From Macrostomum lignano (Eukaryota), in assembly GCA_002269645.1 (NCBI GenBank), contig NIVC01002082.1:1-64000 (forward strand): DNA of 64,000 nt, written 5' to 3'. The notes under the pieces were generated by a model. It was not told where the DNA came from and did not search any database. It saw only the letters and a list, made by a program, of their open reading frames with translations. Positions 1-63,220 of this stretch are shown piece by piece (the first letter of the stretch is position 1; the number at the start of each line of letters is the position of its first letter). Made by a program: the position numbers and the translations under genes.

Positions 1-247
1 CCAACGCAACTCCACAACCCCAAGACCAACCGCCCTCAACAGGAAAAGGAATTTCTGAAATCTACAAGCGAGTAGCGGTTCTTCTAGGAGCAGCAAAGAC
101 CGGAATGAAAGATGAAATAGAAAAGAATTTGTCAACATCCTGGACAAAATGATGGAAAAGAAGTATATTGACAAACGGGCGAGAGAGCTTCTGCTTTCGC
201 GTTCAACAAAAAATAATTTATTTCAAGTAAAAATGCCGATTACTTTT
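1..247 (+). CDS. C-terminal part of a Polinton-type ORF, one frameshift near 120
   Basis: Joining frames gives IYKRVAVLLGAAKTGMKDEIEK/EFVNILDKMMEKKYI, resembling the RLxLLxG..AGN...E...ILD.L motif I recall from Polinton ORFs. Confidence 0.45.
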
Positions 248-640
248 TGAGAAAGACGTGGACAAATACTATGACAAAGAGGAACTTAATCTCATTAAAC
301 GCGGATCTGGACTTTTCCCTGCAGGCCACTATCCAAGAAAAGAACGCTCTGGGAAGGCTTGCCGATTTGATCGCTCAGGGGGCCAAGATTTTAAGGTCAT
401 TGGAGAGAACAAAGAGAACATCAAGAACGTTGCCGAAGCGGCTGCAGTGTAGCCACAGCAGCCAAAAAGATAAAGGATACTGTAACACCTAAACAAGAGA
501 TTCAGCCTCCACTGCCCCGCTGGCTCCATTGGCCCCAAATCCAGACAGCAGTGTGGACCCTGCAGCTATGAGAAGATGAGGGCTAGCCATTAAAAAAGAA
601 GTGGTTTCAAATTTGACTAAAGGGTACTTTCCGAGGAGTA
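233..640 (+). CDS. Small frameshifted viral ORF with GxG motifs (possible virion core protein)
   Basis: ATG in A-rich context at 233; fragments KRGSGL, RSGK/GLADLIAQGAKI and ENKENIKNVAEAAA lie in alternating frames. Confidence 0.35.
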
Positions 641-641
641 C

Positions 642-802
642 AATGACACATCTAAGTCCCAAAATGACACATCTAAGTCCCAAAATGACACATCTAAGTC
701 CCGAAATGACACATCTAAGTCCCGAAAATGACACATTAAGTACCAAAATGACACATCTAAGTCCCAAAATGACACATCTAAGTCCCGAAATGACACATCT
801 AA
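642..802 (+). repeat. 21-bp tandem repeat, about 8 copies, AATGACACATCTAAGTCCC(A/G)A
   Basis: Directly visible; accounts for ORFs 601..834 and 489..767. Confidence 0.95.
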
Positions 803-839
803 ATTATTTATTATTTAAATTTTTTTCATCATAGAAAAA

Positions 840-1637
840 ATGGACTTTTCAAACGACTTCAATCCTCACTGGACGCGTAATCAGATTAAGTTTTCTCATC
901 ACGAGTCAATCCCGAGTCACTTCAGATGCATTGTTGTTGGTTCATCAGGTTCAGGTAAAACATTCAGAGTCTTTAACATGCTTCTTAGACCTGGCTTTAT
1001 CGACTATGACACTCTGCACATCTACTCTCCCACACTGTATCAAGATGAGTATAAATGCTGATTTCTGGATTGCAAAACAAACTGCACAAAGAGGACATTA
1101 TTGCATGTTTTAATAACCAAATGAGCCTTCCCAGTAACCCTGAAATTGTAGCTGCTGAATATGCAAAGCACCTCAAAGACAATGAAAAATGGCAGAACAT
1201 TAAAGTGTTCACCTATGGAGATCCACAGGCTGATCAAAGACCAAACTTCTACCCCAACCAGATGAGCTAGAAAAGGGGAGAAAGCATTTGATCGTTTTGA
1301 TGATTGTATGACAGGCCCACAGAAGCAGATAGAAAACTATTTTACAAGAGGGCGACATAACAATTGTAATGTAATTTACATTGCACAGAATTGCGTCGAG
1401 CTCCCGAACAAAACAATTCGTGGGAACTGCAATCTGATTCTCCTGTTTCCAACCATTCCACAGGACAGGTTAAAAAGATTTTACAATGAGGTCATTGCGC
1501 CTGCCTATTTCATAAATCCAACAAAAAACTCAAGCAGAAAGATTTCACAAGAGGAATTCGTTAATCTTTGCTATGACAAGTGGAATCAGCCTTACCAGTT
1601 TGTGATTATCAGCAAAGAAAAAAGAACTGTAATTTAA
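840..1637 (+). CDS. Polinton DNA-packaging ATPase (A32/FtsK-like), about 3 frameshifts
   Basis: Walker A CIVVGSSGSGKT; Walker B HLIVFDDCM restored by one T at about 1297; RGRHNN arginine-finger motif followed by VIYIAQN. Confidence 0.9.
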
Positions 1638-1653
1638 AATTTGCTATTAAAAG

Positions 1654-2469
1654 ATGTCGATAAACTTTGCAGGTGAATCCATTTCTGGCAACAGCGCTCT
1701 TACATCAGCTCAGATATCCATCCTTGACAGGCGATATATCAACAGCGACGAAAAGATCCCAGAGATCAAACTGAATAAAAACAGACTGAAAGCCCTAGAG
1801 CGCTCCATCACCATTGCAAATAAACATGGAAGATCTCAGGCTTAAAGTAGCTAGCAGAAGTTTGAAGTGATAAGCTTTATGTGCCGTTGTTAAACGCAAC
1901 TAATGAACTAAGGTCAGAAATAACTTCGATAGTCTCGCTAATCAACGGCTTGAGATCATCAGTTAATCTTCTGCGGAAATTCCATTGATAGACGGATGCG
2001 TATTCTCGAAGGAGGAGTTTTCACAAACACAGCTAAAGTAAATAATTTAGAAGAGTTCATGACTCGGTCAACAGCGTTGCATGATAGAATTAAAGAAAAC
2101 GTCGCAACCAACACAGTTAAAGTCAATAATTTAGAAGAGTTCATGACTCAGTCAACATCGTTGCATGATAGAATTAAAGAAAGTCTTGAAGCATTAAAGA
2201 GAAAGGATGTATCACACAGTAGCTATCTAAACGGAATGTATAGCTCTTGGGGTAAAATAATAAGGAGGCTTGATCGTCTGGAGAGAACACTCAATCTTCG
2301 TGATATTGCTATTGATGAAGCAGAATCTGCTGCTCGTCCGGTCATGTCTACAGATCGAGTAGAAGGAGCTCTGGACCCCGACGGAGTAATCCGGCACGCT
2401 CTCAAACGTCAGCCGCCCAGCCGCTGCCTGCTGGACTCGCGATCCTCCGGCGTCACGAGAGCCGCCTAG
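1654..2469 (+). CDS. Frameshifted coiled-coil-like viral protein with an internal 84-bp duplication
   Basis: ORFs 1654..1845 and 1996..2469 can be joined through intermediate frames; T(A/V)KVNNLEEFMTxSTxLHDRIKE occurs twice, 28 aa apart. Confidence 0.5.
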
Positions 2470-2562
2470 ACAACCGGCGGTGCAGATGGAATTATCAAAA
2501 AGAAAACAGATCTTTCAACCGGATAGTTTTATAATTTTTTTTATTTTTTCTAGAGAAAAAAA

Positions 2563-3333
2563 ATGGCCCAACAAAATTCTCTATACGATCAGTCTCAATA
2601 CGTTGAACCTAAAATACCGACAGCACCAAACTCAATGGCACCGAATTCGAACACACAAAACCTGGCACCGAATCTGAATGCACCCCAATATGAGCAACAA
2701 AAACTCTACCCCGTCATTACTTGTAACTCTCAGCAGTTTCGACTAGTGGAGATTCAAAAAATGCGTGATGATCTTGAAAAAAATATTTTCCACAACACAA
2801 AGAAAATTAAGCGCTATGACAACCACTGTAAATTTTTCGACTACAGCAATATGATTCTAGGATCTGTGTCTGTTCTATCTGGATCTGCTGCAGCTGTCTC
2901 AGTGTTGCCAGTCATCACAGCCCCAATCGCAATCCCACTCGGCTCTGTGGGTGCTGCATGTGGACTTATTTCAGCAATTACTGGAGCATTAGCGCGAAAC
3001 AGGCGAAAAAAACTAAAGCAGCTACAGGAGAAGCAAGTAAAAGAGAAAGGGGTGCACACTTCAATCATAGGGTACATTTCAAGGGCAATCGAGGATAAGT
3101 TCATTTCAGAGGATGAGTTCAAAACCATTCAGGATCTTTATGAACAATCAATTCGAATGAACTTGAACATGGTCGGTACTGATGACATGAGTCAGCTGAG
3201 AAATGAACTCGAGAAAGTTCTTCAACATTATGCGGAAAGAAAGTGGCGAAAAATTCGGCAAGAACGTAAGAAGGACGACGAGAAATGCACAATGAACCCC
3301 TATGAAACACAGCCAAGAATAATTTCCTTGTAG
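2563..3333 (+). CDS. Polinton membrane-associated protein (256 aa) with hydrophobic hairpin and ISEDEF motif
   Basis: LYP...FRL.EI motif, hydrophobic segment MILGSVSVLSG...ITGALA, basic RNRRKKLK and SRAIEDKFISEDEF; a pattern I recall from invertebrate Polintons. Confidence 0.75.
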   Translation: MAQQNSLYDQSQYVEPKIPTAPNSMAPNSNTQNLAPNLNAPQYEQQKLYPVITCNSQQFRLVEIQKMRDDLEKNIFHNTKKIKRYDNHCKFFDYSNMILGSVSVLSGSAAAVSVLPVITAPIAIPLGSVGAACGLISAITGALARNRRKKLKQLQEKQVKEKGVHTSIIGYISRAIEDKFISEDEFKTIQDLYEQSIRMNLNMVGTDDMSQLRNELEKVLQHYAERKWRKIRQERKKDDEKCTMNPYETQPRIISL

Positions 3334-3703
3334 GTCTTTCGTGTTTTTGGTCATTGCATACAAAACAGTCATGCACAGCTCACCGCAAATATCACTGCTA
3401 AGACCTTGGAGAATAAAGTCTGAGCGATAAATTTTTTTTATTATTTTTTCCCTTCATATAATTTCTTAGCTCTTCTGGTACTGCCGTCCCATAGCTATCG
3501 AAGTAATAACACTTGTGCTTGCGATCGGGATCAATCACCCAGCAAACCCAATGAGATCCTGGCTTATCGGTAGTGTCAAAGTTCATGATGCCGCATTCTT
3601 TTCTTAGAGGAAAATCAGGCAGAGTGTCTCTCATAAATATTCCTCTAAAGTTTGGGATTTCCAGTTCGTTAGCCAAATCTTCAAGAAAGTTATTTGTCGT
3701 CAT
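3300..3703 (-). CDS. Adenain-like cysteine protease, frameshifted near 3430 and 3340
   Basis: PNFRGIFMRDTLP, GSHW (His) and YFDSYG (Asp); QGLSSDICG (Cys codon 3385-3387) lies in the next frame. Confidence 0.9.
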
Positions 3704-3777
3704 TTTTTTATGAGGTTTATTAAACTTTCTCTTAAACCTAAACCTAAACTCCACCTCCTAAACCAAACCTCCTAAGC

Positions 3778-6700
3778 TTAATCTCCACCTCCTAAACCTA
3801 ATCTCCAGTGCCCGAACGGTAGACTGTTAATGTTGTCATCAAAAATGAATCTCTTGTTATCTGCACCTGACAGTCCAATCTTCTTTTGCTGAATTGTGTG
3901 AATAATATGGTTTTTAGATTGTAGCTTTGAGAACTCATGTGATGTCTTTTTGTTGCAATTCAAGGCGTCTCTGTATTCAGCTTCATTAATTTCCTTCCTA
4001 ACCACACGTTTCGGAATTCCCTTTGATTTTTTAATTGGGTCTGACGACTCACATTTTACAAAATAGGACTTTGCTCTCAACCCAATGAATTCAGTGATTA
4101 TGTCACCAGCAATCTCGTCCTTCATTTTCCCAATCACTTTCTTGTTAGTGGCGTCAAACACTTGATCGCCATTCTGTGTCCTGAAAGATTCATCATACTC
4201 AGACAAGTCAAACAATCTTTTTGCTGCAGCATGTCCTGATAAATGTCTTCTGTTTGAATGTCCATAATAAAACTGTCTGTGTCAGTGTACAAGAGTTTCA
4301 TTTTATCCTTGTACTGCTGCTTCATGCCATAGAAGAACTGGTACATCAGACGTTTTGATTCGTCGAGAACAGTGACACCTGTATAGATCGGCTTGCGCAG
4401 CGTCACCTTGGTTTTGTAAAATATGATCACACCTAAGTAGCTATTAAAGATATGGAGTTCTTTGAATGTTGGCTTTGACATATTTGCCTGAATAACAGCA
4501 GGCTCTGATGAGGTAACAAGTTTCAGGTTTGTTCTTTTCCGCTCATTCTCAAGAGTCTTGCCATAGACAGAGTTGTTGGCCAACTTAAAGAGGTTCTTGT
4601 CAAAGTCGTTGGTTGCTTTGGTCCTAAACTGGGTGTTCTTATCAATGTAGGGTTTCATCCACGCTTCCTCTGTAAATGTAAGAGCCCTGTGAACTTTGGT
4701 GACCCTGCAACCAAGTGAGATAAAATACTGAAGCAGTTTGTAATGGATTTTGTAACGTGTCTTGTTGTTTAGATTCTGTGTTAGTTTCTCTGTATGTTCT
4801 TTTTCTGTTCCTGACAGGTGCCAAGTTCCATTATTATCATTGGGAGTTTCGATTATTTTCGGGCACTTGATGTTCTCTGGGAAGGGTGGAAAGTCAGAGA
4901 AATAGTCGTGAAGCTCTGGTGGAATGTAAACATCAACCTCATAAATGGCAGCCAATGAAAAGTCCTTTGAATTCTGATGAGGGTAGCCATCGAAAATCTC
5001 TAACTGGAAGATCTTGACTCATCGCCCACCCGTAGAGATTATTAGCGTCCAAGTAAGTAATGTAGTTTGAGGGCTGCTCCTTATTGTAAGATTCAATGTA
5101 GGGATTGTTTGCTTTTGCATACCTGTTAACGCAAATTGAGATCCCCCTCGCTTTGACGATTCGACAAAATTGTACATGTCAATGTCTGTAAGAAGTTCAA
5201 TGTACCAATCTGGATCTTGATCCCATTTCATTTTAAGCAAAGATTCCCAGCTAGTGGCAGGCAGAGACACATAATGTGCTGGATCGAGGCCATATGCTGT
5301 GTACCAGGTGTATCTGAAGGTTTCAAACACATCGGCCAGCAGAAACACATCTGTGAAGAGGTAAAGCAGGTGATACTGGAAGAAGTTTTGACAATTAAAG
5401 TAATTATAGACATGCTTCGCGTGCTCATAGTCTTTGTCAGAGATTCCAGAGTCTGTTAGCTTTGAAAAGAACTTCTCCTGTGGTGGTAAACCTTCTTCAA
5501 ATACGTGATACCCAGTAATATTTTCATAGGGGTAGAAGCCTTTCTTTCTTAAAAGTTTAAATGATTCATCAGTGTTGTTAATTTTACTTGCAAACATCTT
5601 TGTATATGTACATTGTTCATCTTTTAGATTCTTGCTTAGTTCGTCTAGACTGGCAGCTAGAAATTGATATGAATCCTTCAGTCTTATTTTACCTGTACCC
5701 GAATTATCCTGTTTAATATCAACACACTTAAACTTCTCCTTGTTCTCTGCGATGCAGTCAAGGTGTATGTCTGGAATCATGCCGATTTTTTCAACTATTA
5801 AATGCATGTCATAGTTCTTTGCGTTGTGACAAAATATCGTTAGATCATGAATGTTCGATTTTAGCTTTAGATTACAGGTGTTATGCGCTGCACCTCTAAA
5901 TTTCCCAGTAAAGTGGCAGTGGTCCCTAACGGTGGGGTTTTTAATATTAGTGCAAGTTAAATGTTTCCTGCAGATGTGGCAATGAGTTGCTGATAGGAAA
6001 TTGCTTTCATCCTCCTCAGTCATCATTATTGGAACAGGTTGAAGGGTGCTAATCACTCTTTGCAACTCTAACATTCTGGCAATAAACTGCTCCACACACT
6101 GCTCTCCAAAGAAATAATTATACTCAACAAGTCCTTTTGTATTAATAAAGGCATATGCTACTGAATTGGGGACATGTTTTTGAGTTTGAGTTTGTTTTTG
6201 AGTTTGAGTTTGTTTTTGAGTTTGTTTTTGTGTTTCCGGCATGATTGAGCATTCGAAATCAGCATATACAACAAATGGGAGCTTCTCCATCTTGTGATAG
6301 TTCTTAAACCGGAGATACTTCTCTTCAGCTGAAGGAAGAGAGCAGTTTGTCGGGTGATCCTCGCATGATAATTCATGCTCTGTTAGTTTTTCAAAGCGTT
6401 CAGGTCCACTGTAATGCTTAAGGCACAAGCGGCAGATGGCAACAGCCTCGTGATGATTATTCAACTGCTTGTGAATGAGTCTTGAAAGATCTTTAATCCA
6501 AACATAGTGAGCCTCCTCTAGTAAATTACCAATCACTAGAAGATCCACTTCAGTCCGCCTTTTCCCCTCAGGATCTAAAACGTCTTTGCTACATCTGACC
6601 GGTTGAACTTTCTCAGTTTTTTCACTCCACTCAAAGACTGTGATTCTAATTTTGTTATTAAACACTTCTTCTAGCTTTGGGATCTGAGAATCGCCAAGCC

Positions 6701-7639
6701 TCCTTTGTCAAACCTGATTCCCTTCTTTTCGCATTCGATGAGATAGTAGTTGAAATAATTTTGATAATTTGAGGTTCTTTCGGGGTGGTGAGGGACACTA
6801 TCATAAAGAAGTGCAGAAAGAACTGCCCATAGAGCACAGCAATTGTCTTTATTTTTAACATTTATGCAAGCTTTTTTACCGGCTAGCTTATGCGGGAGCT
6901 CTATATAAGAGGAGGCTTTAAGTGGGTCATATTTCATGACCATGACAGTCGCTCTTTGAATCCCTCCCACGACCCATCCGGAACCTCTGGATGTAAACGC
7001 TTCAATTTTCTTAGTGACATCTTGAAGGAAAGGATCCAGTGTGTCAGTAGGGGTGAATGGCTTTGCCTTTGTTGTCATGTAATACTCGAGATGCTCAGTG
7101 GGTTTTGCAGGCATATAAAACGCAATCTTGAATGATATCTGTAGTTTAAAGGTCTTGCGTGTTTTGAGTGTGTGATCAACAACTGATTGGATGCTGTCTT
7201 TATAGTCGTAGATGTTTGCGGTGGTGCTGTTTATTGGGATTGTGTACTCTATGTAATGTTCTGTAAACTTCCTCTGTGCAAAATTAATCTCTTCAATGGC
7301 AAGCTCCGACTCTTTTAAATGGATTAATTGCTCTAATTTCTCTTGTTCCTGCTTATTTTGTGGGTACTTTGTTTTTTCACCAGTGAGAGTTTCGTATTTG
7401 TTAACTAAGTTGCGACTCCTCTCTTGGTGTTCCTTTGCAGGATTTTTTATAGGCGCATACTGGTTGGATTCTAATTGATTGATGATTTCCAACTGTTTTT
7501 CATAGCTTCCCAGGTGACCAGGGTCGGTGTTGAACTTTTGTTTGTATGCTTCTCTTAGTGAATTACTTTTGTCTTGAAATGAGACGCCTTTTGAAAAATA
7601 TTTGTTAACTAAATCTCTTGCTGGATTGGCTTTTGGCAT
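3778..7639 (-). CDS. Protein-primed family B DNA polymerase, about 1,290 aa, at least 4 frameshifts
   Basis: GSGW N-terminal motif; zinc-finger/endonuclease VII-like DHCHFTGKFRGAAHNTCN; Exo motifs YADFE, HNAKNYD, YLFTDVFLLAD; polymerase motifs YLDANNLYGWAM, KLANNSVYGK, YTDTDS, RAKSY, KSKG. Confidence 0.97.
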
Positions 7640-7764
7640 TTTTTTTCTCTAAAATAAAAAAAATTTTTGAGGGTGACCACCCTGATAGAAAAGTTGAACT
7701 GTTTCTACATCCTATCAGTAGTATTAGGTTTATGAAGCTGGATAAAGTGGGGTTTTAAACCTCA

Positions 7765-8220
7765 TCACATGCGCATTATTGTAAACCCAGCATTGTGCAG
7801 TGTCATGATGGCTTTGACAATGTCAGACTTGCTTACAGAATTTTCATGCTCAAAATCATCATGATCATCACAATCGGGGCAGCCCTCTCCTGCCTTAATT
7901 GTTATACCTTTGTCTCTTGCAATCTTTTGCAATTCTAGCTGGTGGGCTCTATCATTCCCAGCTTTAACAGCAGTTGCTACACCTCCAGCTACACCACCTG
8001 CGGCACTCACAGCGCCTGCAATGATCGGAATAAGAGCTGCTAATGGTAGGATTCCTCCTGACTTTTCATCTGTGATGCTGTGTCTTTGCTCATTACACTG
8101 AAGTATTTGCTGCGTGGGATCGATTTTTACTTTGATACCTTTAATTGATATAAGACCTGGTTTCTTTGATTCAATGATTTTATTGAGTTTATTGATGGTT
8201 CTGGTTTCAATCTTTGTCAT
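7765..8220 (-). CDS. Adenovirus pX-like virion core protein
   Basis: GGILPLAALIPIIAGAVSAAGGVAGGVA closely resembles the adenovirus pX C-terminus as recalled (GGILPLLIPLIAAAIGAVPGIASVA). Confidence 0.8.
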   Translation of the reverse strand: MTKIETRTINKLNKIIESKKPGLISIKGIKVKIDPTQQILQCNEQRHSITDEKSGGILPLAALIPIIAGAVSAAGGVAGGVATAVKAGNDRAHQLELQKIARDKGITIKAGEGCPDCDDHDDFEHENSVSKSDIVKAIMTLHNAGFTIMRM

Positions 8221-8236
8221 TTTTTATTTTAATATT

Positions 8237-9274
8237 TTAATTAATTTCCGTGTCAGCTGGTATCACTAGGAGTTCAGCTCTAGTGAATGACCGCGTGGGG
8301 GATTTAGGGTTAAAGGTTTGAGATAAAAAGTAATAGTCTCCAGAGTCGGAGGTAAAATGTCTGTCTATTTTATGTACATCAAGGCTGAAGTATGGATCTG
8401 TAGCTCTTCTTTTGGTGTCTTTCTCTAGCTCTCCAGGTAGATATAAAAAGCGTAGAAACTCAGAGTTTGTCAGTATGTATGGTGATTCAACTCCTGGAAG
8501 CTTAGGGTAGTTCGAGGTGTGTTTTGTGTTGTGTGTGTTGTGTGGGGTTGTCGTGTTGTTGTCTGTTTTATGAGATGACTTAAGTTCGACAGTGTCTTGT
8601 TTAATTGCATGGGACGGTTTCAATCCAGTCATACGTGTGACTTCATTGTTCAGTTGCTCTATAACAGTGGGGAGCCGGTCTGTCCATTTTGAATAGTACT
8701 GACCACTTTTTAGTTTCAGCTCCTCAGCTGTCTGCTTAGTGAATAGCCTCTTGGCTAGAGTTAGATTGAATCTCTCAACGTACGCTTGGTCTCTGTGCAA
8801 GTTTGTTCTGCCATAGCGAATCTCTGTATTGTGCTTTTCCATAAGGGATTTCACTGCACCCATGAATTCCTTACCCGGGTCGGTCATGAACATTTCAGGG
8901 TAACTAAGGGGTGAGTTTTTATAAATATCTTGCAGTGCGCTGGCAACAACCTCTGACTTCTTCGTCTTGAGTGGGCGAGCTTCCTTATATCTGGAAGCAA
9001 TGTCAATAATTGTAAGAGCATACTTGTAACCTGAGTCATTGGGGAGAAACAATAAGTCTGCTTGGTGCGCTTCATTAGGTTTATAGATGCTAAAGTGAGG
9101 TCTCGTAAATTGAACAGGTGGGAAATAGACTTGGTAGACTGCTTGCTTAGAGAGCCACTTTTCTACTTTAGCTTTTGGTTCCTTACTTAGTTCTGCGAGT
9201 TTGGTGACTGCATTTTTTCCTACAAAGAATCCTTTGTCGCTGTAGTAGAGTTTTTTAAGTTTCTGATCTGTCAT
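8237..9274 (-). CDS. Retroviral-type (rve) DDE integrase, intact, 345 aa from MTDQ
   Basis: QADL (D), MTDPGKEF (D), VERFN (E); C-terminal RRATDPYFS; no chromodomain seen. Confidence 0.95.
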   Translation of the reverse strand: MTDQKLKKLYYSDKGFFVGKNAVTKLAELSKEPKAKVEKWLSKQAVYQVYFPPVQFTRPHFSIYKPNEAHQADLLFLPNDSGYKYALTIIDIASRYKEARPLKTKKSEVVASALQDIYKNSPLSYPEMFMTDPGKEFMGAVKSLMEKHNTEIRYGRTNLHRDQAYVERFNLTLAKRLFTKQTAEELKLKSGQYYSKWTDRLPTVIEQLNNEVTRMTGLKPSHAIKQDTVELKSSHKTDNNTTTPHNTHNTKHTSNYPKLPGVESPYILTNSEFLRFLYLPGELEKDTKRRATDPYFSLDVHKIDRHFTSDSGDYYFLSQTFNPKSPTRSFTRAELLVIPADTEIN

Positions 9275-9304
9275 TTTTTTAAAAAGAAAATTTAAAATAA
9301 AATA

Positions 9305-9784
9305 ATGCAACGCTCTGGTGGTAAGTTAGATTCACATGGACTGATAGAAAAGCTTCCTCATCCAAACAAAGGCTGGACACTTCCCGGCTATAAATATTGC
9401 GGGCCTTTGAATCCACTTGAAATACAGTTAGATAAAAACAATAATCCACATCCTGGGCATGAGCCTGTGAACGAGCTAGACTCTGTCTGCATGTGGCACG
9501 ATGTTAAATATAGAGATTTTCCTGAGGAGAAGAATCGCTGGGACAAAGAAATGCTTAAGAGACTAGACAATATAGGGGCTTCAAGCGGATTTCGTGAGTC
9601 GATCGCTCGGAAGCTAGTTAAAGCTGTTATTTTTAGTAAAACAAAGTTGGGGTTGGGGGTTGAAGGCGAGGGCGGGTGCACAGGGAGAGAGGGCTGGTGC
9701 ACGGGAGCAGGGTTTATTTTGTGTGCTCCAAACAATGAATTGGGAAGACTGTTGAAAGAGCTGGGGGTTGAGAGAGGCGCTTGA
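9305..9784 (+). CDS. Parvovirus VP1u-type phospholipase A2
   Basis: LPGYKYCGP calcium loop; PVNELD..C..HD..Y catalytic motif; D(K)EML; K.KLGLG. Confidence 0.9.
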   Translation: MQRSGGKLDSHGLIEKLPHPNKGWTLPGYKYCGPLNPLEIQLDKNNNPHPGHEPVNELDSVCMWHDVKYRDFPEEKNRWDKEMLKRLDNIGASSGFRESIARKLVKAVIFSKTKLGLGVEGEGGCTGREGWCTGAGFILCAPNNELGRLLKELGVERGA

Positions 9785-10109
9785 GTCGGGAAAGATTATT
9801 CGCAGCCAAGCGCAACAGCTGCATTTTGAAAAGGGGTGGGGTAACTGCTATTTGCTGAGGGAGCGCAGCTTTTGCGAATGTACAAGTTCCACGCGTGCTT
9901 TCCTTTCCTTTCCTTTCTTTCCTTTGTATTGCGCACGCCAAATAACGAATTAGAAAGACTGCTGAACAGTTTACATTGATAAACAACTGAAAGACTGAAG
10001 CGACAGATTATAGTCGCTATATAGTTTATTAGTTTATTATAGTTTTTCATGTGGTAAGCAACGTGGCAACAACAGAGCATGCAGCAGAAGACAGAATGCC
10101 TATCTTAGG

Positions 10110-10419
10110 TAAATAATAATAATAATTGATTACACCTGCCCAATGGGCAGATGTGCAACCGACAGCTCAGCCGCAGCTATTGCGCGGCGCATCTGAAGGC
10201 TGCGTGCGTCTGTTCAGTCCAAGGACTGGGGGGTCGCCACACACACCCTCAATTACCCCAGCTAATGCTGGCACCCATTTTACAGCTGCGTGAACTGAAG
10301 CAATGCAGAGTTAAGTGCCTTGCTCAAAGACACAGATTGTTGCAGTGGGATCGGGAATCGAACCCTCAACCTTCATTCAACTAGTGAGTCCGACGCCCTA
10401 ACCACTAGGCTACAACCCC
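10110..10419 (-). mobile_element. tRNA-derived CORE-type SINE inserted in the Polinton
   Basis: Minus strand: A box TAGCCTAGTGGTTAGG, B box GGTTCGATTCCC, CORE-like TTGAGCAAGGCACTTAAC...CTGTAAAATGGG, (TTA)n tail; homologous to 62916..63220. Confidence 0.88.
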
Positions 10420-10448
10420 GTATGTGCAGGGTCTTAACTATGCAACAA

Positions 10449-10455
10449 TATAAAA
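10449..10455 (+). promoter_or_regulatory. TATA box upstream of the hairpin array
   Basis: TATAAAA(G), about 135 bp before the first palindrome. Confidence 0.4.
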
Positions 10456-10589
10456 GGTTTCAGGGTGAGCGCCTGCTTTTTCTCCAGCCCTTCTCTCACC
10501 CGTCTTGCCCTACCGCCTCTCATTCCAAGCCTGTCCTCTGGGTGCCTCTCTCTCTTCGCAACTAGCTCTACGCTCTCCTAGTCAAACAG

Positions 10590-11628
10590 CCACCTCAGAA
10601 AATGAAACCGCTGGTTTCAAATTTTGAGGTGGGTGATCTGAGTTCTGCACTGCTTCTCTAGCCTCCGCAACTAGCTCTACGCTCTCCCGAGCTCATTCTA
10701 TTTTTAGTCAAACATAACACTAGCGATCTCGCGCTGGGGGTAGAGGGGCGCCTGGGAATTTTGAGTCTCCCGTTGTACTGAAATCTCCTTCCCCTTGAGC
10801 TCCTCTCCCTTTCCCTTCCCCAACAGTCCGGTCCAGAGCACTGGGCTCTCTTTGCACAGGGGCGCCGCGCCACCTCAGAAAATGAAACCGCTGGTTTCAA
10901 ATTTTGAGGTGGGTGATCTGAGTTCTGCACTGCTTCTCTAGCCTCCGCAACTAGCTCTACGCTCTCCCGAGCTTAGTCAAACAGCCACCTCAGAAAATGA
11001 AACCGCTGGTTTCAAATTTTGAGGTGGGTCTACACTGCTGCGCTATCCAGTTCTCACCCGCCCTGCCACTCACTGCATGCAGTCCGCGCATTCCGCCACA
11101 AGTCCCCCCCTTCTCTCTCCACCCACCCTCCCTCTGCAATTCACTTCTGTGCAGTGCAGCGCCAAAGCCAAAAAAGAGAATTGCAGAGGGTTGAGGGTTG
11201 AGCCGGGCGGGAGGGGTCTTTCGTTTTCTAGCCTCCACAACTAGCCGCTCCGTTTTCTTCTACACTCTCCCGAGCTTAGTCAAACAACCACCTCAGAAAA
11301 TGAAACCGCTGGTTTCAAATTTTGAGGTGGGTGATCTCTTCTACGCTCTCCCAACGCATGGTATGGGTTTTATTTTTAGAACTTACGTCTACACTCTACA
11401 AGGTACAACCTTCTGGGTGATCCCTCCGTTTTCTTCTACGCTCTCCTAGTCAAACAGCCACCTCAGAAAATGAAACCGTTGGTTTCAAATTTTGAGGTGG
11501 GTGATCTGAGTTCTGCACTGCTTCCAGCAGAAACATTTTTCTACACTGTCCCAAGCAAATTTGCTATTTTAATCAGACACCCACCTCAGAAAATGAAACC
11601 AGTGGTTTCAAAATTTGAGGTTGGTGTC
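10590..11628. repeat. Six dispersed 43-bp imperfect palindromes with mosaic spacers
   Basis: CCACCTCAGAAAATGAAACC-NNN-GGTTTCAAATTTTGAGGTGG at 10590, 10870, 10985, 11288, 11458 and (variant) 11581. Confidence 0.95.
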
Positions 11629-11712
11629 AACATTAGTAACTATCCAAGGATAACTTGCTATTATTGTAGCTTCATGAGTTGCTAAATAAACAATAGATAG
11701 GTAATTTAAAAG

Positions 11713-12336
11713 TTAAAACAACAAGCCTTCGTCCACTTCCTGTTGCAGCATCGCAAGGGCCTCTGGCAAGTATGCAATCATCGACTTCAGCTTGTGCAGG
11801 GACATTGCAGATCTTTGTAGCACCGGATATTTCTCAGCTTGGTCAGCCAATTTCATCAGAAAGTTGGTCCACTGGCTGGTGAACGGTGCACGTCTTTTCA
11901 GCTCGTTGAACTGTTCCTTACTGAGAACCCGCTCCATTCTCAGAAAGATCCTGCCGAGCTGTAGGCCGTTTGCAAAGCCATGCTTACCATACCGTTCAAC
12001 TAGCTTATGAAGGTTGGCAATCTGTACAAGCACTGCGTCGATCGTAAATGTTCCCTGCATAAATTCTTCTAGAGAATGCACTGGAACAGGCTCACTGTTG
12101 GTCTTGTAGGCCATGCGCAACTCGTCCAGAGCCTTGCTGATTTGTGATTGTTTGTCGGCAGTTTTCGCTAGCCGACCACTGATAGTTGGCTTCACGATGG
12201 GTGACCGAGCAATTGCATTATATTTATCGGCCCAAACATTCCAATTGTCAAGATCTTTACTAGAAAAAACCGCCTTGATGAAATTCTCCAGATTTTCGAT
12301 GTAAACGTTGTCGCCTGCTTGCATTTCAGCATCCAT
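11713..12336 (-). CDS. Polinton accessory protein, 207 aa, unknown function
   Basis: Intact ORF; GCCATGG Kozak context; upstream TATA; predicted helical. Confidence 0.75.
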   Translation of the reverse strand: MDAEMQAGDNVYIENLENFIKAVFSSKDLDNWNVWADKYNAIARSPIVKPTISGRLAKTADKQSQISKALDELRMAYKTNSEPVPVHSLEEFMQGTFTIDAVLVQIANLHKLVERYGKHGFANGLQLGRIFLRMERVLSKEQFNELKRRAPFTSQWTNFLMKLADQAEKYPVLQRSAMSLHKLKSMIAYLPEALAMLQQEVDEGLLF

Positions 12337-12453
12337 GGCAAGATCCAGAGATTAAGCTAGTCAAAAATAAGAAGTTGCTGGCTCAGCGAGTTGAGGCGGG
12401 GCGAGGCGAGGCGGAGCAGGCAGGGTGAGGCGAGGGGCGGTGTGAATCGGCTG

Positions 12454-12533
12454 TATATATACCATTGGTGTGGGCTCGGGAATCCACGGATTCTCTTTTT
12501 GTTCTAGAATTTTCTAGAATTCGAATTCTAGAA
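12454..12533 (-). promoter_or_regulatory. Heat-shock-type promoter (HSE + CCAAT + TATA) for ORF 11713..12336
   Basis: gTTCtaGAAttTTCtaGAAt at 12501-12520 is a perfect 4-unit HSE, overlapped by the 22-bp palindrome 12512-12533; CCAAT at 12464-12468; TATATATA at 12454-12461. Confidence 0.7.
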
Positions 12534-12885
12534 GGGAAACCCGCAGATTTTCTACTTATAGCCAGTATTTTCTATTAATGGTTGATTGGGGTTGCCTGGG
12601 AAAGATCTAGGAAGACTGCTGAAAGAGCTGGGGGTTGAGAAGGCTGGGGGTTTAAACAAGGAACTAAATGGGCATTTCTGAAGCTAGGCAAGGGATCTTC
12701 TGAGCTAGTTAGGGTTGAGCTGGGCAAAAGCTTTTTTCTCTATGCTGCACACGCCGCTCGCGCTATGACAAGAAACAGCTGCCATACCCATTCCGCTATC
12801 ACCCACCCGCCACACAGCAAAATACCATGCGTAAAAATATCTATTAATGCAGTCTTAAAGTCTTAAAGCGTATCGTAACGACATT

Positions 12886-13125
12886 CTACAATTGCTTAAT
12901 GATTTCTGCAAAGTTATAATAGCTGTCGTAATCTTTTACATAGGTTACTCCATACTTATGAAACCAATGTCTTTGGAGAGCTAGATTAATATTAGGGACA
13001 TTGATATGAACGTCGGGCCAATATTTTCTCATGTATTCGCTGCATTCAAGTTTGCATCGGTACTTGGATTTGTAATTAGGCTCGTGCGCTTTGTAATAAG
13101 AACCTGGAGAGACAACTGGAAACAT
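12886..13125 (-). CDS. Small hypothetical viral ORF, 79 aa
   Basis: Open ORF with the A-rich pre-ATG context (AATAAAATG) typical of this element. Confidence 0.45.
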   Translation of the reverse strand: MFPVVSPGSYYKAHEPNYKSKYRCKLECSEYMRKYWPDVHINVPNINLALQRHWFHKYGVTYVKDYDSYYNFAEIIKQL

Positions 13126-13315
13126 TTTATTGAGAATTTATTATTTTTTTCAAAGGGTAAGGACCCTGCGCTGATAATTTAAAGTCTTAGGGATCTGGTA
13201 GCACGTTGCAAATTGAATGTGGGAAGAAGAATGCAGATTATTTTCTTATTGTTTCGAAGATGCTATGGGTGGATGTCGGTGTCAATGAGCATAACAGGTG
13301 TCAGTGGACACCTGC

Positions 13316-13535
13316 TCTGATTCTGTCAGGGATAATATGGATGGATTTAATACGATTATGTTCGAAGTTTTCGGAGCAAGTGCGACCCCTCCACTTTTTC
13401 ATGATTCTGTCAGGGATAATATGGATGGATTTAATGGGATTATGGAGGACGTTTTGTGAGCGAGTGCGACCCCCCTTTTTTTCTGATTCTGTCAGGGATA
13501 ATATGGATGGATTTAATGGGATTATGGAGGACGTG
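13316..13535 (+). repeat. Three copies of an 82-84-bp unit (GATTCTGTCAGGGATAATATGGATGGATTTAAT...)
   Basis: Core starts at 13319, 13403 and 13485; lies within ORF 13206..13649, whose coding status is doubtful. Confidence 0.9.
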
Positions 13536-13779
13536 AAAAATTTTGTCCCAAAAGCCCCCTCATGCCTTCTACTCTGGGAGAAGTGCGTGCAGTTGATGGG
13601 CAATTATGTCGAGAAAGCTTCCCTCCCTGATGATGATGAGGCATACTAACTGTCGTAACTTCTTGACCTGTTGCACCATGCACAAATTCATTGTAACTCT
13701 ATGGTCGACCTTTTTGTGTGTTTCTATCCATAACTTTGTTATAGGTTGTGTTTTTTGTTAAATATTTGCAGTCAAATTA

Positions 13780-26779: not shown

Positions 26780-34607
<7,828 letters not shown>

Positions 34608-56690: not shown

Positions 56691-59600
56691 TCCACCAAAG
56701 ACGCCGCCGCCGCCAGCAGAAGCGAAGTCGCCGAAGGTCATACCGCCGCCAGCCTGCATGGCGCTGCTGAACCCGCCGAAACCTCCGCTGCTGCCGCCTC
56801 CACTGCCAAACAGACCGCCGCCTCCAAGCGAAGCTGGCGACGTCGACGAAGGCGAAGTGCCTGCGAATGGCGAGGCGAATTGAGGAGCCGAATTGAACAG
56901 CCCACCAGCAGATACACCGCCGCCGCCACCTCCACTGAAGAGGCCACCACCGCCACCTCCGCCTCCGCTGCCAAATAAGCCGCCAGAAGTTGAAGCCGCT
57001 GCTCCCAGGACGCTGGTGCCCGAGAACAGGCTTCCGCCGCCGCTTCCGGTTTTGGCGCCAGGGCTTGCAAACGGATTAGCGGCGCTGGGTTGACTTGATG
57101 CGCCTGAGGATTTTATTATTGTTTTCTTATAAATAAAGTAATAGTTGAACATGTATTACTACTATTGGCATATGATTTCTTACAGAAACTATTCCAATTA
57201 TACAAGTGGTATTAAATGATTTACTAATCTATCTACTTTACTACCCACCGTATCTACTCTATAACCTACCGTATCTACATGCATCATATCTACAAGTATC
57301 ATATTTACTATGCGACCTACCGTATCTACACTGTTACCTACCGTATCTACACTGTTACCTACCGTATCTACACTGTTACCTACCGTATCTACACTGTTAC
57401 CTACCGTATCTACTTTACGACCCATCGTATCTACTTTACGACCCATCGTATCTACTATATGATCTACCGTATCCACTCTATGACCTACTATATCTACTAT
57501 ATGACCTACCGTATATACTCTGTGACCTACCGTATCTACTCTATGACCTACCGTATCTACTATGTGACCTACCGACTACCGTATATACTCTGTGACCTAC
57601 CGTATCTACTCTATGACCTATCGTATCTACTCTATGATCTACTATAACTACTATATGACCTACCGTATCTACTCTATGACCTACTTGACCTACTATATCT
57701 ACTATATGACCTACCTTATCTACTATACGACCTACCTTATTTGTATATGACATGCCGTATCTACTTTGTGACCTACCGCATCTACTCTCTGACCTACCGC
57801 ATCTACTCTCTGACCTACCGTATCTACTATCTACCTATCTATTGTACGATGCAACACATCTGTGCTATGACCCACATGTACACTATAATTTATACAATAC
57901 TATATCTACACCTCCGCTCAATCAGTCACACTTACCCCAGTAACTAATGACATGCCTAACACCCTTTAAAATTTGACTCACCAAACATTAATAAAAGTGT
58001 AATATACAACCTGTACTCAGACAGTTAGACTCCTATCCTAGGCTGCCCTCCCCTAAACCTCAATCAAGGTCAATTGCAAGAAAACAGCAGTAGAAGTTTC
58101 ACCTGCAGCGGTCGAGGAGAACAGCCCTCCGCCGCCGCCGCCGCCGCCGCCACCACCGAAGACGCTGCCACCGGCTCCGGGACCCGTTGACGATGAGCCG
58201 AACAAGCCACCTCCTCCGCCGCCGCCGCCGCCGCCGCCGCCGCCAGTAGACAGTGACGAGAACAGTCCACCTACAGACGACAGACTAGACTGTCCCGCAG
58301 CTGCCGCGGTGGTCGTTGCTGTTGACGATGAAAACAGACCGCCGCCGCCACCAGCGCCTGCGGCTTGCGAACCGGAGAACAAGCCACCGGTGCTGCTGCC
58401 AAACAGGCCACCACCAGTATTGGGAGCACCTGTTGTAGCTGTTGTGCCAGCAAACAGGCCACCACCAGTATTGGGAGCACCTGTTGTAGCTGTTGTGCCA
58501 GCAAACAGGCCACCACCAGTATTGAGAGCACCTGTTGTAGTTGTTGTGCCAGAAAACAGGCCACCACCAGTATTGGGAGCACCTGTTGTAGTTGTTGTGC
58601 CAGAAAACAGGCCACCACCAGTATTGGGAGCACCTGTTGTAGTTGTTATGCCAGAAAACAGGCCACCACCAGTATTGGGAGCACCTGTTGTAGCTGTTGT
58701 GCCAGAAAACAGGCCACCGGTGCTGGAGGTACTGGTTGAAGCAGCTGCAGTACCAAAAAGACCACCAGTCTTTATAGCACCGGCTGGAGGTGTTGAAGTT
58801 GCAAACAGACCACCGGTGCTGGTGGTACCGGTTGGAGCTGTAGAACTAGCAAATAGACCACCGGTGCTGGTGGTACCGGTTGGAGCTGTAGAACTAGCAA
58901 ATAGACCACCGGTGCTGGTGGTACCGGCTGGAGCTGTAGAACTAGCAAATAGACCACCGGTGCTGGTGGTACCGGCTGGAGCTGTAGAACTAGCAAATAG
59001 ACCACCGGTGCAGGTGGTACCGGTTGGAGCTGTAGAACTTGCAAATAGACCACCGGTGCTGGTGGTACCGGTTGGAGCCGTAGAACTAGCAAATAGACCA
59101 CCGGTGCTGGCGGTACCGGCTGGAGCTGTAGAACTTGCAAATAGACCACCGGTGCTGGCGGTTGTAGCAGCTGCTGAAGTTCCAAATAAACCACCGGTTC
59201 CAGGCGCAGCTGATGAACTGGTTGTTTTTCCAGAAAACAGGCCAGCAGTGCTTGAAGTGGCATTGGTAGCAGAAGTAGTTGACGAAGAAACAATGCCTGC
59301 GGTGGGTGTAACTGCTGAAGTAACAGTTGAAGTATAAAGCAGGCCAACAGTTCCTACCGGAGATTTGCTAGCACCTGTTGTAGCTGCAGGTGAAATCGCG
59401 TCGGTTTTAGCTGCACCTGTTGAAACCGCCGGCGCAGCAAATAGACCGGTGCCAGGTGCTGCTGCAGCTTTAGAGACTACAGCACCGGTGCTAGTTGTGA
59501 CCGGTGTAGACAACAGGCCACCAGTGACAGGTGCCGCTGCAGCTGTTGGCTTAGATACTACAGCACCGGTGCTAGCTGTAACCGGTGTAGACAACAGGCC

Positions 59601-62600
59601 ACCAGTGACAGGTGCCGCTGCAGCTGTTGGCTTAGATACTACAGCACTGGCGCTAGCTGTAACCGGTGTAGACAACAGGCCACCGGTGACAGGTGCAGCT
59701 GTAGCTGTTGGTTTGGAGACTGCTGCACCGGTGCTGGCCGTAACCGGTGTAGACAACAATCCACCGGTTCCAGGTGCTTTAGTTGTAGTAGGCGGCATTG
59801 ACAAAAGACCACCGATGGTACTAGTGCTAGTAGGAGCTTTACTAGCACTGGTGAAAGCAGACGGTACTGCTGTTGTTGCAGCAGGTGCCGATAGCAGAGC
59901 GCCAAGACTAGAAGGCTTTGCCGCCGCGGACACCGCTCCAGGAGCAGCAAAAATTCCTGCTGTAGGAGTGCCAGACACAGAGGAAGCAACCGGCACTTTG
60001 AAGGGGCCGCTAGTGGATCCAACTGAAGACTGGGAAGCTGGCACCGCGGCTGGCTGCTGCGACAGCAGGCCGGTAAGCAGACTGCCACTAGGAGAAGCAG
60101 ACGATGCAGTCGACTTTGGTGAATTTGGCTTGTTCTGCTGTTGTTGTTGCAGTTGTTGGCGTCGAGCAGCCGCTGACGCCGCTGCCGCCGTGGAAGACAT
60201 GACTTGACGAACAATTGATTCAACCAGAGCGTCCGAATTGGGCGACCCTGAAGCCGTTGACTTCGACACTGATGAACTCTTCTTGCCCTTTGGCGTCACC
60301 TCCGGAGCTGGAGGCAGTTTAGTCAGCGACGCGGCGGACGTCGTTAGCGAGCGTCGGTTCGACCGCTGCCCGAGAGCCAGTGGCGAGGTCACCGAAGTCA
60401 AGGACGCCTGCTCAAACTCCCGCTCTAACTCATTGAGCAGGTTGGCAGCAGAGGCGGTGCCGAGGACACCGGAGGCGTTGGAACTTGACGATGCCGCAGA
60501 CAGATCGTTGCCAGCAGTGGCTTGTCGAGCAGCGTCGACTCGCAGAGCGGCAAAACGATTCATGAGCTGGTCCATGGCCTCCTCCTGTTGTTGAATGATG
60601 CGGTAATTGGTGCGGATGGTCTGATAGACTGAATGAAGCGGCGGTACCCGTCTCTGGTGCTGTTGGTGCTGCTGCTTCCTAGACGCTGTAGCCAGCCGAG
60701 CGTCCAAAGCTTCGTGCAGGCCAGCCGTGACTGTCTCCAATCGATGCAGCGTAGATTTGACAGTGCCAATCCGTTTGCGCAGGGCGGGATCCATGCCGGC
60801 CAGACCGCCAGCTGCTAGCACAAGTCGGCGTGACTTGGCATCCTGTTGCATATTGAGCAGGGCGTTAGCGTACTGCTGCGAGGCCGTATTATCGAATACC
60901 GCAGCTTTAATAGCACGCGCTTCTGCGCTCATTTCAGCCAGGGTCTCCGATAGGCCCGGCGAGTGCTGCAGCGCAGCTTCAATCCGCTTGATAAACGCTT
61001 TAGACGCGTCCGGCGAATCGAAAGCGGCCCGTTTAGAAAGCACTTCAGCGTTGGCAGCCTTAGCGGACGCAATGTCCTTGTGCAAAGCCACTATCATGCT
61101 GGAGATTTCGGCATCGTAATCCGCGGGAGTCGGAGCTGGCTGAGCCGGTGGTGGAGTTGGTCGCTGCTGCTGCTGCTGCTGCTGTTGGGGCTTTGGTTGC
61201 TGAGTTAATGGCGATGCCTTGGAAGTTCGAGCAGGCTGAAGAACTGTAACAGATTGAGGCTGGGCCTGAGGCGAAGGCTGCGCTGGCGCTACTGATGTTG
61301 GAGTCAAAGGCTTATTAGTTGAAGGCGGTTTCTGAGGTTGAACTGCAGTCAACGGAGGAGGCGTCGCTAATTTGGTAGGCTCTAATACAGGCTGCTGTGG
61401 CTGCTGCTGCTTCTGAGCTGCTGGTTTCGGCGCTCTAACAGTCGGCTTAAATTCAGTTGGAGTTCTATTTAATTGCTGCCAAATATTTTTATCAGCTGCG
61501 GCGGGTGGCACAATAGCAAAGGGGCACAGATAGCCAGTGTTGGTCACTGAGTACACGTGCAGCCCAGGTGTCACTGTCTCGTCAGATGCGACTGGCACAG
61601 GAGCGGCAGGTACAGAGGAGTAGGCAAGGCCCAGACAGAAGGAATCAGTGCCGTTACTTCCAGCTGGTAGGGTGATCCGCTTTCCATATGGCGGCAGCAG
61701 TTCGCTAACAGACGGCTCGTTGCCAAGCAGCTGCAACAGGCTGGCCTCGACTGAAGTGGACAGAGCGGCTATCAGTAGCGACCACTGAGGCACATAGGCC
61801 AACTGGTAGAATATCTGTCTACTGCCTGGCGGAGCAAACGACATGCCAATCTCGCCTAAATCAGTATAAACCGGACGGCCGGGCTCTTTTGGACAGGCCA
61901 GACAGCCGGCCGAGCCGCTCTGACCGTCCGAGGTGCCGGCCAGAAAGAATCGAAAAGTTGACAGCCACAGCAGGTTGGTGACCCCGGTAGACAAGGCGTT
62001 GCCAACAGCCTGGGTGGCGTCAATTTTTCGTTTGCAAGCCAAGTTTAAATCGAACTGTTCCAAGTGCACAAATCGTTGCTGTTGGCCTGGAGACGAACAG
62101 AAACAAGCTACCAGCTGTTTGCCTCTGGGACTCCAGCAAGCTGCAGAAATTGGCCGATTAGTCAATGAGCCAACAATGGTGACGCCTTCTCCGCTAGCTA
62201 GCGAGTACAGGCTCAGACTGCCGTCTGACAGCAAGCAGAACAGACTGTCTGACAGCTCGGGATTCCAGCCAATTTGGCTCACATAAATATTGGCGCGTTG
62301 GGAAGCGCGGATCTCTAAGTAAGGAGCCGGAGCTGGAGCACTGGCTGAGAACCAGGCTAATTCGTAAAGGCTAACAAATGCACCGCAGGGTCCTTCGGTG
62401 GCTACGGCCAACAGGCTGCTGTCAGAGTTCACAGCTAAACCTGTAGGCCTGCCCTTGGCTGTTGGAACCGTGCAGCGAAATGCGAATTTATCAATCAACT
62501 GAGTAGATGTCTTGTGAGTAGTAAGTGTGGCTGTTTCAATATCGGCTGTATTGGTAACAACAAAGTCTGCAGCTCTGGCTGCTATGACCAGTCCCTGACT

Positions 62601-62732
62601 TGTGCAGGCTACAAGGCTAGTAGCAGTCGGTCTAGCCACCACATCGTTGGGATAACTGCTGCCAGCTCCCAGGTCTAGATCGATACGGCCCAGTGACAGG
62701 CATTGCAAATCGTCAATATCTTTGGTTTGCAT
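56610..62732 (-). CDS. NUP214: Nucleoporin NUP214/Nup159 orthologue; join(58103..62732,56610..57103), 1,707 aa
   Basis: N-terminal beta-propeller (WNP, CWSPRGKQL, YVPQWSLLIAA); coiled coil VYQTIRTNYRIIQQQ; GGLF/FG-type repeat tail; phase-1 GT-AG intron. A short upstream exon is possible. Confidence 0.9.
57237..57840 (+). repeat. 21-bp minisatellite CTACCGTATCTACTCTATGAC in the NUP214 intron
   Basis: Directly visible. Confidence 0.95.
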
Positions 62733-62915: not shown

Positions 62916-63220
62916 GGAAGTTGTAACCCAGTGCTTAGAGGGTCAGACTTACGACTTGAAGGAAGGAAATTCGATTCCCGATCCAATTAAAACAGTTTGT
63001 ATCCTTGAGCATGAGCAAGATACTAATTTTTCTCTATTGCTTCAGTTCACCCAGCTGTAAAATGGGTGCCAGCATTAGCTGGGGCAATTGAGGGTGCGTG
63101 TGGCGACCCCCCCCCATTCCTTAGACTCAACAGCTACACACAGCCTTCAGATGTACCATGCAATGTGGCTGAGCTGTCAGTTGCACATCTGCTCATTAGG
63201 GGCAGGTGTAATCAATTTTT
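62916..63220 (+). mobile_element. Full-length CORE-SINE copy, diverged
   Basis: Colinear with the reverse complement of 10110..10419 (TTCGATTCCCGATCC, CAGCTGTAAAATGGGTGCCAGCATTAGCTGGGG, GCAGGTGTAATCAATT). Confidence 0.88.

Follow-up and report, generated by a model that had tools for sequence, protein, structure and literature searches.

Heat-shock elements (HSEs) in mobile DNA are established for LTR retrotransposons, namely ONSEN of Arabidopsis and the Mag, CsRN1 and Gmr1 families of the flatworm Macrostomum lignano; according to the accessible parts of PMC12801592, the HSE in these independently acquired cases has been validated and drives the whole element. Caenorhabditis Helitrons carry HSE clusters that rewire host genes (accessible text of PMC6927752). 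HSF has also been tied to the expression of latent viral genes, both at the HIV-1 LTR (excerpts of PMC9367301) and at gammaherpesvirus ORF50/BZLF1 (excerpts of PMC12047821); these viruses are unrelated to the element described here, and no copying of a host promoter was seen in those excerpts. No report of an HSE in Polintons turned up in searches of the open-access literature. The words Polinton, Maverick and hsp90 do not occur in the text of PMC12801592, and "heat" does not occur in the accessible part of the adintovirus paper PMC8502044.

Here, we analysed a 64,000-nucleotide stretch of M. lignano DNA (the window) in which an accessory gene of a Polinton, ORF207, lies behind a promoter that is, by its alignment, a copy of some 120 bases from the hsp90 promoter of the host. 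Like ONSEN and the flatworm LTR families (as described in the accessible parts of PMC12801592), it is a mobile element with a canonical HSE upstream of a TATA box. Unlike them, it is a dsDNA virus-like element whose donor promoter appears identifiable, and the HSE would drive the accessory slot alone. An ONSEN-like heat-activated element would be expected to have an HSE that rules the whole element and is fixed in the family; the module found here is confined to an accessory slot in a minority of copies. Polintons and Helitrons are both DNA transposons holding a sizeable share of genomic HSEs (for Polintons, 47 of the 526 perfect sites of one phase), but here one host promoter seems to have entered the element, whereas the Helitron HSEs act on host genes (PMC6927752, accessible text).

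Positions 1-13573 of the window are one end of a decayed Polinton, and the window starts inside the element. A protein-primed PolB, fragmented in this copy, and an rve integrase are both present (Table 1); the ATPase and protease fragments score below cut-off, yet they stand in the expected Polinton context. Copies of the element stop sharply at 13573, and the family has 348 exact termini genome-wide, many arranged as inverted pairs 15-20 kb apart with AG...CT ends and long terminal inverted repeats (the assembly contains near-duplicate loci, and these and all later copy counts do not equal independent insertions). In L081, the one two-ended copy checked, about 690 bp are common to both ends and a 6-bp target-site duplication, TACCAG, flanks the element. 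Double jelly-roll major capsid genes (PF21738) were found outside the window, within terminus pairs of family copies (e.g. C66, C298 and C658). The viral context proposed in a preliminary description of this DNA is thus borne out by PolB, integrase, ATPase, protease, capsid, termini and target-site duplication. The pPolB, integrase, ATPase, protease, capsid, PLA2 and pX genes are shared with PLA2-type adintoviruses and Polintons (accessible part of PMC8502044). Since the replication genes of the window copy are broken, any effect of this copy would be in trans.

Table 1. Coordinates of the Polinton genes, the accessory slot and the promoter features in the window.
Feature	Position	Strand	Remarks
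Packaging ATPase, in pieces	840..1637	+	PF04665, E 8e-4, below cut-off
Adenain-like protease, short	3398..3703	-	PF00770, E 0.0035, below cut-off
Protein-primed PolB, several pieces (separate ORFs)	3778..7639	-	PF03175, E 3e-10
Adenovirus pX-like gene	7765..8220	-	PF05829, E 5e-7
rve integrase	8237..9274	-	PF00665, E 4e-9
PLA2-domain gene, inner boundary of the slot	9305..9784	+	PF08398, E 5e-14
Dispersed host repeat in the slot (presumably SINE-like)	10139..10420	.	inverted match at 62957-63200
Array of six 43-bp imperfect palindromes	10590..11623	.	downstream of allele A alone
ORF207 (slot allele A), all-helical, probable DUF3102/ParB-type helix-turn-helix	11713..12336	-	207 codons
GC-rich leader	12337..12432	-	non-hsp90 origin; first part common to several slot alleles
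Block with upstream box, half site, HSE and TATA, very probably captured from the host hsp90 promoter	12444..12561	-	101/118 identical to 4/4 hsp90-1 loci
TATA box TATATATA	12454..12461	-	40 bp from the HSE, same gap as hsp90-1
Perfect four-pentamer HSE	12501..12520	.	perfect in 39/40 similarity-found copies
22-bp perfect palindrome overlapping the HSE	12512..12533	.	holds out-of-phase half site 12526-12533
Variant CTAAAAATAG box	12552..12561	-	counterpart in host hsp90 and hsp70 promoters
Terminal inverted repeat with tandem subrepeats	12886..13573	.	element ends ...CTACT at 13573

Several other features accompany the element. The dispersed repeat in the slot recurs in several allele-A copies and also near hsp90-2. 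A 79-codon frame without a Pfam match lies within the terminal repeat (12886-13125), is longer in other copies and is possibly no gene. In L005, L006 and L047 Polinton termini adjoin other Polinton sequence, suggesting nested insertions, and a second Polinton family also has ORF207 paralogs near its terminus (L031-L040, L021-L023). Alleles C and D show an apparent short 5' intron. Elsewhere in the window, gag and aspartyl-protease remnants lie between 154-bp inverted repeats (31913-33587), which is odd for an LTR-type gene set, and a 1559-codon ORF with 48- and 51-bp tandem repeats occupies the minus strand at 58053-62732, with a sub-threshold FG-repeat match as its sole hit.

ORF207 sits in a slot between the terminal repeat and the convergent PLA2 gene, and its promoter lies 350 bp inside the terminal repeat. 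The preliminary description had read there a perfect four-pentamer HSE overlapped by a 22-bp palindrome, 40 bp from a TATA box, then a GC-rich leader and a GCCATGG start unlike the A-run starts of the core genes, and all of these were recovered. The window has no four-unit HSE but this one (expectation 0.02; one arose in 2 of 100 shuffles), which, with at least three alternating nGAAn units near a TATA box, has the make-up of an HSF-regulated promoter; genome-wide, perfect four-unit sites of the same phase number 526 against 107 for the reversed control. The leader reaches 70% GC at 12372-12432, no ATG intervenes between the TATA box and the start at 12336, and the 7 core Polinton genes checked all begin behind A-rich runs. 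Two readings held in part. An extra TTCTAGAA is indeed present in the palindrome, but as an out-of-phase two-unit half site that does not lengthen the HSE. The geometry is that of a host-type heat-shock promoter, but its 40-bp gap is that of hsp90 and not of hsp70, as the proximal HSE lies 13-14 bp from the TATA box in 18/18 host hsp70 loci examined.

We then asked where this promoter comes from. The 118 bp of the block align with the HSE-TATA region of cytosolic hsp90-1 at 86% identity (E 3e-33; z=27.8 against shuffles), whereas hsp70 promoters reach only z 2.7-2.8 against the same block, and the 17 mismatches spare all 18 GAA/TTC letters. A pattern search with the HSE and its flank returned 51 genome sites against 0 for the control; all 51 were examined and proved to be 47 Polintons and 4 hsp90 promoters. 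The half site is also present in hsp90-1, and some Polinton copies lose it through an 11-bp deletion. Changes in promoter length among the copies are of 11 bp, about one helical turn (L013, L100, L102, L104, L107, L110 and L113; also L101), and either remove the half site or, in allele K, shorten the HSE-TATA gap. An hsp70 or small-HSP source was considered and rejected, with no extended match in 30 hsp70-family and 30 HSP20 loci; targeting of a minisatellite near hsp90 by the element was likewise discarded, being seen in 1 of the 36 termini listed.

Capture of the host hsp90 promoter by a Polinton is therefore, on the strength of this alignment, very probable, and its direction was most likely from host to element. 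The host hsp90-1 gene is intact, with two introns and a C-terminal MEEVD. Its cytosolic paralog hsp90-2 differs from it at 48/80 fourfold sites and still keeps the order of CTAAAAATAG box, HSE and GAATCCAT (z=6.9). Because this layout is an old host property, shared by hsp90-2 and, for the box, by hsp70, transfer into the Polinton is the likely direction. The reverse, in which a Polinton donated its promoter to hsp90-1 as an exaptation, has in its favour that host genes do receive HSEs from mobile elements, Caenorhabditis Helitrons being an example (PMC6927752, accessible text), and that 47 Polinton copies stand against a single host gene. We consider it very unlikely, given the layout or box in diverged hsp90-2 and in hsp70, the absence of the block from most of the Polinton family, and the flanks of hsp90, which hold no Polinton remains: Polinton proteins found no match in 13 hsp90-family loci and their flanks, and the block is the only Polinton DNA near hsp90-1, host repeats aside. 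An HSE assembled by chance or convergence from repeated TTCTAGAA words might be imagined from the 526 perfect four-unit sites in the genome, many of which lie within other repeats; with 118 bp of colinear identity that includes non-motif letters and the poor hsp70 alignments, such an origin is exceedingly improbable, and we regard it as ruled out by the extended hsp90 homology. The homology ends just beyond the TATA box, upstream of the expected transcription start, so capture probably occurred as DNA and not from an mRNA. The CTAAAAATAG box, which we take to be MEF2-like, was also noticed beside HSEs in host hsp70 and hsp90 promoters (L051-L068, L105, L125-L127).

Conservation of the HSE was examined in 40 copies (19 distinct sequences) found by DNA similarity to the promoter; these are related copies, and losses are under-sampled since recruitment was by promoter similarity. 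In the HSE core and half site 1/18 columns vary, compared with 33/94 elsewhere (p=0.008), and shared variants fall in 0/18 versus 16/94 columns (p=0.048). For the 12 core HSE letters alone the differences fall short of significance (p=0.054; shared variants, p=0.12). Variation falls on the spacers and avoids the GAA/TTC letters, and deletions drop the half site while sparing the four-unit HSE. Together, these patterns lend moderate support to selection on the HSE.

The module precedes 8 different genes in this one variable slot. ORF207 matches the genome at 63 places, which form four groups. Within allele A, the HSE is kept in 17/21 loci that have the 5' end and lost or replaced in 4/21; it is also lost or replaced in L140, L142 and L144, making seven loci altogether, and L140 and L142 retain the TATA box with the HSE replaced. 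Conservation of the HSE upstream of homologues, on which the preliminary description had staked its reading, is split: in the nearest paralogs, alleles B, C and D (27-39% identity), 0/19 loci have an HSE of at least 3 units within the 1450 bp upstream that were scanned, and allele D fills this slot in elements whose cores are 94% identical, but the module does stand before seven more distant slot genes, alleles E-K. The ORF207-family profile matches E at E 2e-26, F at 5e-6 and one J-type exon at 1e-6. As the matches of G-J are weak (E 0.02-0.8) and K has none, the kinship of these alleles rests on motif similarity. G-J have a common conserved GT-AG intron, which points to Pol II genes. In allele K the module is inverted, 11 bp shorter and carries several hsp90-type letters, so that K would be either an early branch or a separate capture. 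Set against the 348 family termini, the 47 module copies are a minority. In L146, L157, L165 and L169 the slot holds additional alleles of this protein family under different promoters, and L146 has a near-HSE 20 bp before a TATA box.

To see whether HSEs recur in the slot, we inspected 40 further slots, hand-picked from PLA2 matches not known to carry the hsp90-type module. Six have an unrelated four-unit HSE, followed after about 10-13 bp by TATTTAAG in 5/6; one carries a three-unit module of K type, and 10 measure less than 1.2 kb and are apparently empty. The motif of this second module occurs at 44 genome sites (control 0). By coordinates, 24 of them lie no more than 2.5 kb from a PLA2 gene or terminus on our lists, both of which are incomplete. 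Its source was not found in 30 hsp70-family and 30 HSP20 loci. The recurrence of HSEs in one slot argues for a function. In the second-module loci (L153, L160, L162 and L170-L172) the module stands ahead of other genes of the same protein family or of none detected. Perfect four-unit HSEs were also seen in LTR-like repeats of a presumably copia-type retrotransposon, followed by gag-like and integrase-like frames (L119:2391-7110, L120:2771), and in another repeat family (L117 and L118, near 2772), where a palindromic four-unit HSE is embedded in a longer inverted repeat and neighbouring frames look OB-fold-like by eye.

The reading frame of ORF207 is uninterrupted in 10/13 full-length copies at ≥94% identity, and the shared changes among nine A copies (14 synonymous, 10 replacement) are a weak sign of constraint. 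A single-sequence search returned 0/212 candidates, no usable match came from Pfam, PDB sequence or Atlas, and neither ORF207 relatives nor the promoter motif were found in the viral and metagenome contigs searched. A profile search gave 31 relatives, the weakest of them DUF3102-like. A relative of ORF207, P0003, is recorded from M. lignano, and ORF207 may correspond to one of the unnamed "Adintoc" groups of PMC8502044. Against the DUF3102 profile ORF207 has no match, while relatives P0031 (E 2e-4) and P0017 (E 0.06) both fall below the curated cut-off, and hhalign of ORF207 with a DUF3102-like protein gives 10% probability. The predicted model is all-helical (pLDDT 86; 93 for the C-terminal domain). 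The structure search suggested in the preliminary description produced concordant DUF3102/ParB-type matches, but all were below threshold (Z<8; E ≥0.19), with nothing at E≤0.001 for the whole protein. The best match spanning most of the C-terminal domain is the Spo0J DNA-binding domain (Z 6.4, the highest obtained; rmsd 5.2; 97 aligned), a ParB-parS domain reaches Z 5.4, and the top 7 viral rows include three DUF3102 proteins; a DUF3102 phage protein scores probability 0.80, TMq 0.50 and E 0.32. ORF207 is probably a DUF3102/ParB-type helix-turn-helix DNA binder. Its predicted likeness to DUF3102 and to ParB-Spo0J with parS-like palindromes lies in a helical topology over ~97 residues and in nearby palindrome arrays; unlike ParB it has no ParB CTPase domain, and the similarity is sub-threshold.

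The A palindrome occurs in 16/21 A loci and behind no other allele, and nine allele groups have their own repeat arrays downstream, often palindromic. These arrays (L085-L100, L041, L101, L102, L144) are allele-specific, with related palindromes in alleles F-J. The array motifs were chosen by eye from these same alleles, and none of those tested was found in E, B, C, M, N, P and Q. The pairing of allele and array could come from linkage alone, and we only tentatively suggest, from the predicted fold, that ORF207 acts as a DNA binder on the element's own arrays.

Taking these observations together, we favour, with reasonable though far from full confidence, the following scenario. The Polinton family has a variable accessory slot, bounded by the PLA2 gene on one side and a terminal repeat on the other, into which an ancestral element would have copied the hsp90 HSE-TATA stretch, presumably as DNA rather than from mRNA. 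The module then persisted through exchanges of its downstream gene between divergent paralogs. Host HSF would most likely occupy the HSE and, together with host Pol II, render ORF207 stress-inducible, the basal activity typical of hsp90 promoters being probably retained. ORF207 might then bind the downstream palindrome array or related sites and act on the element's DNA, as a regulator or in copy maintenance or exclusion. HSF-dependent heat induction of the accessory gene is, judging by the promoter, rather likely; this reading is weakened because 2/6 flatworm LTR families with HSEs are not heat-induced (accessible part of PMC12801592). In contigs of three runs guessed to be RNA and of one unclassified run, the ORF, the promoter and the repeat are all covered alike, which is uninformative either way.

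The preliminary description went further and cast ORF207 as an HSF-induced immediate-early protein coupling proteotoxic stress to reactivation of integrated Polintons. The authentic hsp90-derived promoter, the second independent HSE module in the slot, the probable DNA-binding fold and the capsid genes of the family would suit such a trigger; it is nonetheless improbable and so far unsupported, as most copies are without the module (47 against 348 termini), 10/40 sampled slots appear empty at <1.2 kb, alleles B, C and D are HSE-free, some lineages have replaced the HSE, and the core genes have none, the window's element being without another four-unit HSE. On the favoured reading, ORF207 is an accessory that a copy can do without rather than a switch on which it depends. 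Basal activity is high at hsp90 promoters, and the block could have been kept as a strong, largely constitutive promoter whose heat response is incidental or silenced away. That conservation statistics are only moderate and that lineages with a TATA box but a replaced HSE still spread (L140, L142) agrees with this, but variation on spacers away from the GAA/TTC letters, deletions that take the half site and leave the four-unit HSE, and the recurrence of an unrelated HSE module in the slot do not, and we consider it rather unlikely. Beyond the favoured stress-inducible accessory gene, a more speculative and, to us, rather unlikely extension is a modular stress-sensing slot that gained heat-shock promoters on two or more occasions, one of them demonstrably from hsp90, and paired them with interchangeable helix-turn-helix proteins and their own operator-like palindrome arrays. 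Under stress, HSF would then switch on an allele-specific regulator that governs how active Polinton lineages are or whether they exclude one another.

These data bear on what wakes animal Polintons. HSE-bearing and HSE-free alleles in elements that are ~94% identical provide a natural controlled comparison for HSF driving Polinton genes. The donor promoter is visible here, whereas the known HSE-bearing transposons are without an identified HSE donor in the accessible parts of PMC12801592 and PMC6927752. The alignment with hsp90-1 thus indicates that regulatory DNA, beyond genes, has moved from a host to an endogenous DNA virus, and would offer a traceable case of a borrowed stress switch.
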